64,000 bases of DNA, from positions 37,804 to 101,803 of the forward strand of contig CAZDED010000001.1 in assembly GCA_964504535.1 (NCBI GenBank), given 5' to 3'. The DNA is from an uncultured Gammaproteobacteria bacterium (GTDB taxonomy: Bacteria > Patescibacteriota > Microgenomatia > Levybacterales > GWA1-39-11). Below, piece by piece: positions 10,180 through 13,338 of the stretch. The position numbers were made by a program, and so were the translations under genes. The notes below the pieces were generated by a model. It worked only from the letters and a program-made list of their open reading frames with translations. It was not told the DNA's origin and searched no databases. Each line of letters begins with the position of its first letter. Position 1 is the stretch's first letter.

Positions 10180-10312
10180 TTAGGTACGAAGTTAGATTTC
10201 GCTTTTATTTGCTCTTGGATCTGTACAGGTACTTCCTCGTAGTGAGAAGGTTCCATGTAAGCATTTGCACGACCTTGTGTAAGAGATCTGAGAGTCACTA
10301 ATGAATAAATTG
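10180..10312 (-). pseudogene. orphan duplicate of the fusA 3' end (encodes only the last ~45 aa of EF-G)
   Basis: By-eye alignment with 11209..11340 at roughly 85% nucleotide identity; translation ...[45 protein letters not shown] versus the EF-G C-terminus ...[41 protein letters not shown]; no upstream EF-G domains. Confidence 0.75.
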
Positions 10313-10331
10313 GCGTGTTATACTTAAACTT

Positions 10332-10892
10332 ATGGCTGACAACTCAGATGAAGTACTAGATTTCGACCCAGAAGAAGAAAGATCGAACAAATTACCTGAA
10401 CTAACAACACTTCAAAAGACTGCTAAAATATCCGGCGAAACAGAAGCAGAGATTAGAGAAAAGTTTGGGATATATAACGATAGGAACTACCCTTATTCGT
10501 ATCAAGATCCAGATAATTTGTTTATAATAACAAAAAGTGACTTTGGATACACTAGGATGTATGAAAGATATCACCCGAGCGAATATACCGATCCATCATT
10601 TTCCATAGCTCGTAGTGCTAGTATCAAAGACGCTGGGAATTTAGATATTTCTTATGATGGAGAGGGGACGTCGGAAGGTGATACTTTTTACCCTGATGGA
10701 AGGATGCATCTGGAATTGAATTACCCGGTTGGTTCTAGAGATGCTGACACTCGTGGTAAGCCTGCTTACGCTTTTAATCCAGGTTTTAGTTTTGATTCAG
10801 AAGGAGAATTAAGTGAAGTCAGGCTTGCATATGGTAAGAAACTAGTAAAAAACGGTGGGGGGGTTATAAAGCTCAACTTCTTAAAGATATGA
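10332..10892 (+). CDS. hypothetical protein (acidic N-terminus; no recognisable domain)
   Basis: 186-aa ORF; 3' end overlaps the next ORF in an ATGA arrangement. Confidence 0.45.
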   Translation: MADNSDEVLDFDPEEERSNKLPELTTLQKTAKISGETEAEIREKFGIYNDRNYPYSYQDPDNLFIITKSDFGYTRMYERYHPSEYTDPSFSIARSASIKDAGNLDISYDGEGTSEGDTFYPDGRMHLELNYPVGSRDADTRGKPAYAFNPGFSFDSEGELSEVRLAYGKKLVKNGGGVIKLNFLKI

Positions 10893-11200
10893 ATTTTATA
10901 GATGCACCAGATGACACATTCAATGATCTTAAATGGAACATTTCAGACAATGGATCTATTGAGATAGATTTGTTTGAGAACGAACAAGAACTTATTAAAA
11001 TTGTAAGTCCTACTAAAATCGATGTCGGAGATTTAAAAGAGAAGATGTTTCCACCATATTTAATTAATAATCCAGCAAGCCGCGACATAAATGTAGATGA
11101 TTCTTGGAGAGATCCTGTATCAACAAGGTTAGGTATGTCCATAGAAGTGTTGAAATTTTTTGACCGAGAGGGTGGCAGTTGGAACCCAAAACTTTTTTAA
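10889..11200 (+). CDS. hypothetical protein
   Basis: 103-aa ORF translationally coupled (ATGA) to 10332..10892; convergent on fusA. Confidence 0.4.
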   Translation: MNFIDAPDDTFNDLKWNISDNGSIEIDLFENEQELIKIVSPTKIDVGDLKEKMFPPYLINNPASRDINVDDSWRDPVSTRLGMSIEVLKFFDREGGSWNPKLF

Positions 11201-11208
11201 ACTTCTTA

Positions 11209-13338
11209 TTACTCTTCTTTTGGAATGAAGTTGGATTTTGCTTTGATCTGCTCTTGAATTTGTACAGGAACTTCTTCATAGTGAGAAGGTTCCATGTAGG
11301 CATTTGCACGACCTTGTGTTAGAGAACGAAGTGTTGTGATATATCCTGACAATTCTGCAAGTGGAACTTGAGCTAGAATAATTCTTGAATTTCCTCTTTC
11401 TTCGCTGCCTGAAATTTGAGCTCTTTTTGCAGAAAGGTCACCAATAACATCTCCCATAAATTCATCAGGGGTCGTAACTTCAACCTTCATGATTGGTTCA
11501 AGAAGAGTAACATCAGCTTGCCTTGCACCCTTTTGGAAAGCTTGAGATCCTGCAATTTTAAATGCGATTTCTGAAGAGTCAACGTCATGATACGTTCCGT
11601 CATAAAGTGTAACTTTTACGTCAACCACTGGGTATCCAAACATAACTCCCCGCTCCATAGCCTCTTTAATACCCTTTTCAACTGGTGGGATAAATTCTGC
11701 AGGAATTGCTCCTCCTTTGATGGCATTTACAAATTCAAATCCTTCACCACGAGGTTTTGCTTCAACAGTTATAAGAACGTGACCGTATTGCCCACGTCCT
11801 CCAGTTTGCTTGATGTACTTAAATTCAGCATTTGCCTTTCCTTTAATAGTTTCCTTGTATGCAACTTGTGGAGCACCAACATTTGCCTCTACTCCCATCT
11901 CTCTTTTCATACGCTCCACCATGATCTCAAGTTGCAATTCTCCAACTCCTGACATGATGGTCTGACCTGTTTCATGATCCATTTTGACGGTAAAGGTAGG
12001 ATCTTCTTCCATGAGTCTTTTCATTGCAGCACCCAATTTCTCTTGATCTGATTTTGTCTTTGGCTCGATAGCAAGCGAGATAACCGGATCTCTAAAAGTA
12101 ATTTTCTGAAGAACGATAGGCTTTGCTTCGTCACACAAGGTGTCTCCCGTTACTGTGTCTTTAAATCCAACTATAGCTACAATTTCTCCTGCATATGCTT
12201 CTTTGATCTCTTCTCTTTGATTCGCATGCATAAGAAGAAGGCGTCCTACTCTTTCTTTAACATCCTTTGTTGAGTTATATGCGTAGCTTCCAGAGACAAT
12301 TTTTCCGGAATAAAGTCTAACGTATGTGATCTTTCCGACGTGTGGATCAACCTGCACCTTGAATGCAAATCCAGTAAATGCTTCATCTGGTGTTAATTTT
12401 CTTGTTTCCTCAAGTTCAGTTTTTGGATTGATACCAGTGACAGTCTCTAGATCAACTGGAGATGGTAGAAAGTCGATAACTGCGTCGAGTAGTGGTTGAA
12501 TACCTTTATTTCTCAAAGATGTTCCTGCAAATACTGGAACGACTTTGTATGCGATGGTTGCTGCACGAAGAGCTGCTTTTAATTCGTCGTATCCTATTTC
12601 TTCTCCATTAAGATATTTTTCAAGAAGAGCATCATCTGTCTCTGCAATTTTTTCAATGAGTTGCTCTCGGTATTTTTTCACCATCTCAGTCATCCCGTCT
12701 GGGATCTCATCATTTACTTCAAATGTTGCTCCCAACTCTTCTCCATTCCAGATGTATGACTTCTCATCTAGCACATGATAAATTCCTTTAAAATCATTCT
12801 CTGCTCCAATTGGAAGTCCGATTGTAACTGGGTTTGCACCAAGTCTGTCGATAACTGACTGGATAGTCTTTTCATAATCTGCTCCAAGCTTGTCCATCTT
12901 GTTGATAAAACAGATTCTTGGAACATTGTATTTATCAGCTTGACGCCAAACAGTCTCTGACTGTGACTGGACACCCTCTTCAGCATCAAGAACGGTAATT
13001 GCTCCATCCAAAACTCTTAAAGATCTTTCAACTTCAGCGGTAAAATCAACGTGTCCGGGGGTATCAATAAGGTTAAATCTGTGGTCTTTCCAAAATGTAG
13101 TTGTTGCAGCACTAACGATAGTGATTCCTCTTTCTCTTTCCTGATCCATCCAGTCCATTGTTGCTGCTCCTTCATGAACTTCACCTATCTTGTATGTACG
13201 TCCTGTGTAGTAAAGAATTCGCTCTGAAGTTGTGGTTTTACCTGCATCAATGTGAGCGATGATTCCGAAATTTCGGATCTTGTCTAGTGCAACATTTCTG
13301 TCTTTTGTTACTGTTGTTTGTGGAGCTGAACCGGCCAT
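11209..13338 (-). CDS. fusA: translation elongation factor G
   Basis: [43 protein letters not shown] and full EF-G domain II-V sequence. Confidence 0.97.

Follow-up and report, generated by a model that had tools for sequence, protein, structure and literature searches.

Prophage e14 of Escherichia coli lies in the 3' end of icd, where its insertion leaves a 163-bp pseudo-icd (PMC6379469). In fungal mitochondria, mobile open reading frames (ORFs) form hybrid genes with displaced C-termini, as in atp6 of Allomyces and in atp6, atp9, cox2 and nad3 of Glomus (PMC3630166). An anchor-plus-displacement logic has been proposed for Rhs loci and for the effector loci of type VI secretion systems (T6SS) (PMC5361080), and homology-facilitated illegitimate recombination, documented in naturally competent bacteria, combines one homologous anchor with one non-homologous joint and involves no dedicated recombinase (PMC3240628). 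Here, a comparable footprint is described at the fusA gene, encoding elongation factor G (EF-G), of an uncultured bacterium of the Levybacteria, within the Microgenomates of the candidate phyla radiation (CPR). The DNA analysed (the window) is a 64-kb stretch of contig CAZDED010000001.1, and positions refer to its first letter unless another locus is named. The 3' end of fusA is present twice in the window, once at the end of the gene itself (copy B) and once as a fragment, fusA' (copy A), and between the two copies lie two orphan genes, ORF1 and ORF2.

As in the e14/phage 21-icd systems, the insert sits in the 3' end of a gene for a conserved protein and supplies a nearly synonymous replacement tail, the original tail being left at the far end (163 bp there, 126 bp here). 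Unlike e14, a 15-kb prophage remnant that carries its own integrase and excises, it measures 1 kb and encodes two orphans but no recombinase; neither an excised form nor an empty site is known in this species. With the mitochondrial mobile ORFs it shares a C-terminus that appears to have been acquired horizontally, a cargo of about 1 kb, and a displaced native C-terminus, located downstream of the hybrid host gene, that is closer to relatives than the inserted one. The cargo of those elements, however, is a LAGLIDADG or GIY-YIG endonuclease read from the same strand and often in frame, whereas the cargo at fusA is convergent to the host gene and includes no recognisable nuclease. In Rhs and contact-dependent inhibition (CDI) toxin loci and in T6SS effector-immunity loci, the conserved 5' part of a gene also serves as an anchor to which a new 3' end is joined together with partner genes, and older 3' ends pile up downstream as orphans, as fusA' does here. 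In such polymorphic toxins a new tail means a new function; in the present case the gene is that of a housekeeping translation factor, and one residue is changed (V to I). Laboratory examples of homology-facilitated recombination usually involve a deletion in the recipient, whereas nothing is deleted here and the anchor is apparently very short. The insert adds a new gene and a new lineage to a known type of footprint, of which it is a clean natural example.

Two fusA tails and their provenance

The duplicated tail is by far the strongest self-match in the window (10171-10295 versus 11210-11334; self-BLAST E 7.6e-34). It forms a direct repeat of 125 nt, 85% identical, with a spacing of 1039 nt and both copies on the minus strand. 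Read in the fusA frame it comprises 41 codons plus a stop, which is an intact TAG in the fragment (10170-10172) and TAA in the gene (11209-11211). A first-pass annotation, made from the letters alone, had recognised the same-orientation duplication at about 85% identity and the intact stop; its downstream copy, set at 10180..10312, proved to be some 10-17 nt off, and the final ~45 amino acids that it assigned to the repeat are reduced to 41 codons by the alignment. Perfectly identical blocks of 20 nt occur between the copies. Similarity breaks off sharply at the second T of ...GYIT|TLRSLTQGR, where the fusA sequence reads ...GGATATATCACA|ACTCTCAGATC.... The gene itself (11209..13338, minus strand) encodes 709 aa with the complete set of EF-G Pfam domains. 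Ten of the 13 contigs on record that contain ORF1 were inspected in ENA and Logan assemblies, and the repeat-cargo-repeat structure was seen in all ten, identical or with at least 99.5% identity. An assembly artefact is thus ruled out, and the insertion is fixed in every sampled contig of this species.

Taken as coding sequences, copies A and B are 84% identical, within the range of 81-86% seen for fusA tails between species of the group. Eighteen codons differ, 17 of them synonymously (counting TAG/TAA) and one by a conservative V/I exchange; 18 of the 20 nucleotide differences fall at third positions, and neither a frameshift nor an internal stop is found. Both tails thus bear the signature of purifying selection at the sequence level, and the preponderance of synonymous differences argues that each evolved inside a functional fusA gene, the two genes belonging to different lineages. 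Same-orientation direct repeats about 1 kb apart could also be left by a local tandem duplication of the tail in this genome, followed by divergence and by insertion of the two genes. Such a history is highly improbable. A silenced copy should change at all codon positions, yet the changes are concentrated at the third; the fragment's peptide is still identical to the EF-G tail of relatives; the copies have diverged about as much as fusA tails of separate species in the genus; and, when the two are compared with the closest relative, it is the in-gene copy and not the fragment that stands apart. The codon-position pattern effectively refutes duplication in situ followed by decay. A diversity-generating retroelement was also rejected: no reverse transcriptase family is present in the gene tables, and the mismatches are third-position changes of all base types, not adenine-specific. 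Separately, a population variant was noted at window position 11299 (locus L008), where copy B changes from G to A, the state of copy A at the matching position; it could be an ordinary single-nucleotide polymorphism or a trace of gene conversion between the copies.

The closest relative is the lineage of EF-G protein P0133 (loci L093-L096), whose fusA matches that of the window at 699/709 amino acids and 87% of nucleotides and has the same neighbouring gene order. Its site is empty: the fusA stop is followed after 71 nt by the start of the ATP-citrate-lyase (ACL) beta gene. Loci L014 and L016 likewise have an empty site. The first-pass annotation had held that a lack of empty-site versions among relatives would speak against an insertion; L093, L014 and L016 provide them, although the uninterrupted junction is fusA-ACL and not the fusA-tuf junction that had been expected.

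Both copies were aligned against the fusA gene of L093. The body of the gene (codons 1-668) is 87.7% identical in nucleotides (68% at third positions); for the 54 nt that immediately precede the repeat the identity is 90.7%. Copy A, with 105/126 matches (83.3%; third positions 64%), falls inside the normal range of the gene body. Copy B, with 98/126 (77.8%; third positions 52%), matches L093 less well than any 126-nt segment of the body does (lowest count 99; binomial p 0.0013). Along a stretch of about 45 nt copy A equals L093, and six sites there are different in copy B. The peptide of copy A matches the C-termini of P0133 and P0139 at 41/41 positions; copy B encodes ...NFIPKEE, and the closest relatives (L093, L097, L098, L012) have ...NFVPKEE. 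In-silico deletion of 10296-11334 restores a single intact 709-aa fusA ORF whose product is 699/709 identical to P0133; an exact look-up of this restored protein in a collection of 15 billion proteins returned nothing. Both junctions map to one point of the native gene, within about 20 nt. Since copy B is unusually diverged and copy A normally diverged with the relatives' C-terminus, copy B, ORF2 and ORF1 very probably came in together and copy A is the displaced native tail. Measured against species divergence, the event is recent, since copy A shows no amino-acid change from relatives. Of the earlier proposal that an element had integrated into the 3' end of an essential gene while supplying a replacement end, the insertion and the replacement are retained and the mobile-element label is not.

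As to how the DNA was inserted, we tentatively favour, at slightly below even confidence, a homology-driven C-terminal displacement of fusA, that is, a recombinase-independent capture of DNA from a sister lineage. A 1,039-bp segment from a related Levybacteria lineage would have entered at one point, between codons 668 and 669. It would have comprised the donor's last 41 fusA codons and stop, then the two orphan genes, convergent to fusA, and a short stretch resembling a promoter, the donor presumably already having these genes directly behind its fusA. The cell's own homologous-recombination machinery would have inserted this DNA after uptake, with the conserved fusA tail as homology anchor. 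The incoming tail would thereby complete fusA, giving a hybrid essential gene, and the resident tail would be pushed about 1 kb downstream, to survive as a not-yet-decayed fragment before the native spacer and the ACL genes. The route may have been homology-facilitated illegitimate recombination, or else a Campbell ("ends-in") crossover with resolution where the homology stops. If a crossover in this short homology can resolve at either border, both the pattern of the window and that of the Roizmanbacteria locus L133 (see below) would follow.

Table 1. Features of the fusA locus in the window, and duplicated fusA tails at other loci
Feature	Position	Strand	Basis or remark
Native fusA part, codons 1-668	11335..13338	-	EF-G Pfam domains; similarity to empty-site relative L093
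Copy B, 3' end now used by fusA, 41 codons + TAA	11209..11334	-	Probably foreign, arrived with cargo
Gap of 8 nt between convergent fusA and ORF2 stops	11201..11208		Read from sequence
ORF2, 103 aa, acidic orphan	10889..11200	+	Start overlaps ORF1 stop by ATGA
ORF1, 186 aa, acidic orphan	10332..10892	+	Starts 36 nt beyond copy A
Cargo-side junction segment with TGTTATACT at 10316-10324	10296..10331	+	Read by eye
Copy A (fusA'), probably displaced original fusA 3' end, 41 codons + TAG	10170..10295	-	Now a gene fragment
Hairpin CCTTTGTACTCAAAGG directly past fusA' stop	10154..10169		Terminator-like site, flagged on plus strand
Spacer upstream of ACL-beta gene, with palindromic intergenic repeat copy and TTCGAAATTCG motifs	10026..10153	-	
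ATP-citrate-lyase beta-like gene, conserved fusA neighbour	8838..10025	-	Pfam Citrate_bind, Citrate_synth_N
Whole insert, 1,039 bp: copy B, 8 nt, ORF2, ORF1, 36 nt	10296..11334		Length equals repeat spacing
Second tail, L133, Roizmanbacteria	8992-9100 vs 9814-9922 (L133)		Repeat 109 nt, 73%; cargo a 185-aa convergent NYN-domain gene
Second tail, L047, Daviesbacteria	7579-7620 vs 12295-12336 (L047)		Repeat 42 nt, 83%; cargo a 4.7-kb island
Second tail, L177, lineage with fusA only 60% identical	9067-9099 vs 9805-9837 (L177)		Repeat 33 nt, 97%; cargo ~0.7 kb
Decayed tail remnant, L178, directly past fusA stop, before tuf	9062-9200 (L178)		No cargo

The cargo genes and the search for a recombinase

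The two translationally coupled, opposite-strand ORFs that the first-pass annotation had placed between the copies and called of unknown function were found as described, with an ATGA overlap (Table 1), and their orphan status was borne out. Among 5.8 billion clustered proteins, ORF2 retrieved only itself, and ORF1 only itself and weak matches to repetitive surface proteins; the weak matches to these ORFs are Rib, MucBP and Kazal repeat proteins and are regarded as compositional. An exhaustive HMMER search of 1.8 billion representatives gave no real homologue of either protein, sequence searches gave no Pfam, PHROG, PADLOC, NCBIfam or PDB match, and BLAST detected no similarity to phage genomes or plasmids. 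No homing endonuclease family (LAGLIDADG, GIY-YIG, HNH or other) was matched in the cargo at E<=0.1 to 1 in Pfam, NCBIfam and PHROGs. AlphaFold single-sequence models reached a pLDDT of 38 and were unusable for a fold search.

Both ORFs nevertheless look like real genes from their sequence. The in-frame codon-usage score is +0.20 for ORF1 and +0.27 for ORF2, akin to other accessory genes here, all other frames being negative; codon usage and third-position GC content (GC3) match the host, and ORFs of these lengths are estimated to be very unlikely to arise by chance in 38%-GC DNA. An extended -10-like box, TGTTATACT, was read by eye 7 nt before the ORF1 ATG, and -10-like boxes also stand a few nucleotides before the ATG of fusA and of the ACL-beta gene in the window. 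The TGTTATACT box was not picked up by the consensus promoter scan, for which a -35 box is a requirement. The pair looks to be expressed from its own predicted promoter, against fusA read-through; between fusA and ORF2 the promoter/terminator scan found no terminator. Together with Rfam, that scan gave nothing above background except one hairpin, CCTTTGTACTCAAAGG, which has no T-run on the fusA strand and is possibly the original fusA terminator. The overlapping two-gene layout might suggest a toxin-antitoxin-like or defence role, to which low weight is given. No toxin or antitoxin family was matched in Pfam or PADLOC.

Recombinase genes were sought in the gene tables and by Pfam scans over window positions 1-23,349 and 30,870-63,548; the two large ORFs between these parts (23358-30783), directly upstream of rpsL, presumably encode RNA polymerase subunits. 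The annotated parts contain no integrase, transposase, reverse transcriptase or phage structural module, so that the integrase which the earlier annotation thought might lie elsewhere on the contig did not turn up in them. The cassette itself holds no integrase, transposase, nuclease, phage or conjugation gene. The locus displays gene-end direct repeats, an intact target with a displaced native end, and an empty site in relatives, as an integrative element would, but no tyrosine or serine recombinase gene inside the element. Nothing marks the insert as an integrating mobile element. On the displacement reading favoured above, the cassette would be passively captured accessory DNA and not an autonomous mobile element.

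Recurrence and candidate mechanisms

In the Levybacteria relatives with the gene order of the window, the ACL genes adjoin fusA directly or after one to three other genes, and the fusA-ACL interval is variable, with 0-3 differing genes among close relatives. In L097 it holds a convergent 327-aa orphan gene that begins 1 nt past the fusA stop, with no tail duplication; in L098 and L099 it holds a hydrolase-glyoxalase-HAD trio; and in other relatives it holds an MBL-fold gene, an orphan of 203 aa, or a HAD gene that may be accompanied by a guanylate-kinase-like gene. A duplicated fusA tail was found in none of these close relatives with other genes in the interval. The cargo proteins of the differing hotspot variants are mutually unrelated.

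A scan of the 180-odd fetched fusA loci for a second fusA tail yielded the four further cases of Table 1. L133 (JGI Ga0315297_10000359; 6998-9922) came from a metagenome scan with fusA, in which the best of the matches listed reached 79% and came from distant relatives. The 3' end of its NYN gene extends over the fusA stop with an overlap of 23 nt, and NYN proteins of the same cluster are on record from about 70 Roizmanbacteria contigs. The tail differences are again mostly synonymous; the in-gene copy looks the more native, the reverse of the window. The L047 island includes a histidine kinase (identified by eye), a DUF6259 protein and a terminal Phd/ParE pair. No integrase family was matched in the scanned cargo ORFs of L133 and L047, including the three largest ORFs of the island, and no junction motif common to the window and L133 was found. 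With respect to the insertion point, the L133 breakpoint is one to three codons off that of the window, and the duplicated stretches of L047 and L177 are just 42 and 33 nt long. When all fetched loci were compared with themselves by BLAST in search of other gene-end duplications, the matches were mostly intergenic repeats. A scan of viral contigs for fusA tails returned only an unrelated prophage next to tuf: on a non-CPR contig (IMGVR_UViG_3300031555_005087, L182 1877-3016), tuf, which closes the fusA-tuf pair, is followed directly by phage-like genes and a gene resembling those of tyrosine integrases. This prophage has no relation to the window cassette.

Several of these observations lead us to favour capture by displacement. 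The cargo scanned in these cases shows no recognisable recombinase or nuclease; the repeat lengths differ among them, as expected for joints that are not site-specific; in L133 the native-looking and foreign-looking copies seem to have traded places relative to the window; and the codon usage of the cargo is host-like. The convergent orphan behind fusA of L097, found without a duplication, indicates that the postulated donor layout exists in the genus, and the variability of the fusA-ACL interval is as expected if exchange by flanking homology is common there. The leading segment of the insert, copy B, moreover has a homologue in the recipient at the point of entry, namely the native tail. At the joint, ...TTAGTG|ACTCTC..., only AC can be assigned as possible microhomology. 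Natural competence has been demonstrated in a CPR lineage, the Saccharibacteria (PMC10633639).

Other points weigh against displacement by capture. The most serious is that both junctions fall at one native point (within ~20 nt), the pattern of a single-site event such as site-specific recombination or break repair; a site-specific event fits it at least as well, and under one-sided homologous recombination the anchor would have to be very short, or resolution would have to fall exactly at the homology border. The breakpoint of L133, within one to three codons of that in the window, hints at a site preference; given the range of repeat lengths, the odds of so close a coincidence by accident are estimated at about 1 in 10. 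In addition, a donor genome with copy B followed by ORF2-ORF1 was not found, both orphans being recorded only in this species; the assignment of foreign and native copies draws on 126 nt and one close relative; and natural competence in the Levybacteria has to be assumed.

The same single-point geometry is what a site-specific integrative element (a prophage, a genomic island or a cis-mobilisable element (CIME)-like unit) would leave if its attP contained a fusA 3' end and its integrase had since been lost or lay elsewhere, in which case the cassette would be its relic or a derivative mobilised in trans. The order of parts is precisely attL - cargo - attR, the gene ending in the element's tail and the displaced native tail lying beyond the cargo; relatives have the empty site, the 20-nt identical blocks could act as a crossover core, the L133 breakpoint is nearly identical, and e14 in icd, with its 163-bp pseudo-icd, is a precedent (PMC6379469). 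We nonetheless consider this origin, the chief rival of displacement, rather unlikely. An integrase is missing from the cassette and from the annotated parts of the window, and no integrase family was matched in the scanned cargo of other fusA-tail duplications; the repeats are of unequal length (33, 42, 109 and 125 nt), and the native-looking in-gene copy of L133 is a poor fit to a fixed crossover point. The cargo has no phage or plasmid relatives, and an empty-site variant of this species is not on record.

The nature of the L133 cargo bears on another possibility, a selfish homing cassette as a bacterial counterpart of the mitochondrial mobile ORFs. A nuclease encoded by the cargo would cut cassette-free fusA near codon 668, and repair from a cassette-bearing copy would paste in the tail and the cargo, the displaced tail serving as the second homology arm. 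The architecture matches the atp6, atp9, cox2 and nad3 hybrids of Glomus and Allomyces (PMC3630166), and synonymous recoding would shield the in-gene copy from cleavage. At almost the same codon, L133 carries a protein with an NYN domain, which has a PIN-like nuclease fold; NYN domains, however, are mostly RNases. ORF1 and ORF2 have no nuclease family, motif or homologue, they lie on the opposite strand and not in phase with the host gene, and the cassette was found in one species only, so that homing appears improbable. A broader conjecture, which we regard as a long shot, is that the window, L133, L047 and L177 represent a recombinase-free class of selfish or semi-selfish CPR cassettes with a recoded fusA tail. 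As a bacterial analogue of the mitochondrial mobile ORFs, such cassettes might spread among CPR bacteria by re-inserting into naive genomes, with the recoded tail and the displaced native tail as the two homology arms, possibly helped by unrecognised nucleases such as the L133 NYN protein or ORF1/ORF2.

The case indicates that even in the reduced genome of a CPR bacterium a highly conserved gene essential for translation can be mosaic, with a tail from another lineage and accessory genes hitch-hiking along. Conserved gene ends may act as landing pads for gene gain in genomes where classical mobile elements are rarely seen, and displaced tails that are still readable may date and orient recent transfers. 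As fusA is a common phylogenetic marker, the case also warns of foreign segments within it. Should recurrence at the same codon prove to exceed chance, an undescribed insertion mechanism would be indicated.

The tuf-less str region and further observations

The canonical order of the str operon is rpsL-rpsG-fusA-tuf. In the window, rpsG does not lie directly upstream of fusA nor tuf directly downstream: rpsL-rpsG are found at 22441..23349, about 9 kb away, the genes between including those for an APH-like kinase, a PsiE-like protein, a cyclophilin and a peptidase M24, as well as guaA. A tblastn search with E. coli EF-Tu detected no EF-Tu-like gene in the window, in agreement with the first-pass annotation, which had noted the absence of tuf after fusA and had offered, as one explanation, a rearrangement that displaced it. 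That explanation does not hold. Among relatives with this gene order (L012, L014-L017, L093-L097, L099 and L183) fusA is followed by the ACL-beta gene and not by tuf, and in L014 and L015 rpsL-rpsG also lie kilobases upstream of fusA. From these comparisons, the split, tuf-less str region is ancestral to the clade; since the empty-site relatives are tuf-less as well, the arrangement predates the insertion and is unrelated to it, and displacement of tuf by the cassette is ruled out.

The spacer between fusA' and the ACL-beta gene belongs to a family of palindromic intergenic repeats (6494-6559 plus 6908-6953, 8736-8837 and 10026-10169) that lie upstream of the ACL-beta, ACL-alpha and murB genes and contain many TTCGAAATTCG-like motifs (11 matches where 2 are expected). 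The spacer copy at 10026..10153 is similar to 8745-8834 and to 6511-6554 plus 6917-6942, and one copy appears to be split by a 23S-rRNA-IVP-like gene (6560..6907). L093 lacks both the palindromic-repeat spacers and the IVP gene. The repeat could be a common operator or promoter, or a small insertion-prone hairpin element. Also absent from the same place in L093 is a 565-aa MATCAP-like peptidase encoded between guaA and a DUF1801 gene (13855-15552). No flanking gene-end duplications were seen at this gene or at the IVP-like gene (6560-6907).

A different kind of mosaicism may be present in another EF-G, P0021 (L184 8001-10109). Its first ~450 residues are 44-86% identical to the window's genus in most 50-residue blocks, and its last ~260 residues show 94-100% protein identity at only 79% DNA identity; the upstream neighbours differ (pilus genes). 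P0021 may be an old mosaic fusA product, or constraint may be very uneven along the protein. Elsewhere in the window, the gene of a 754-aa protein with a Baseplate_J-like segment (34139-36403) adjoins a sortase gene (33407-34138), a combination that is odd for a CPR genome. Self-BLAST also revealed two internal 64-nt repeats (39459-39522 versus 39624-39687, 81%; 61163-61226 versus 61439-61502, 75%) and a 52-nt palindrome at 61980-62031.

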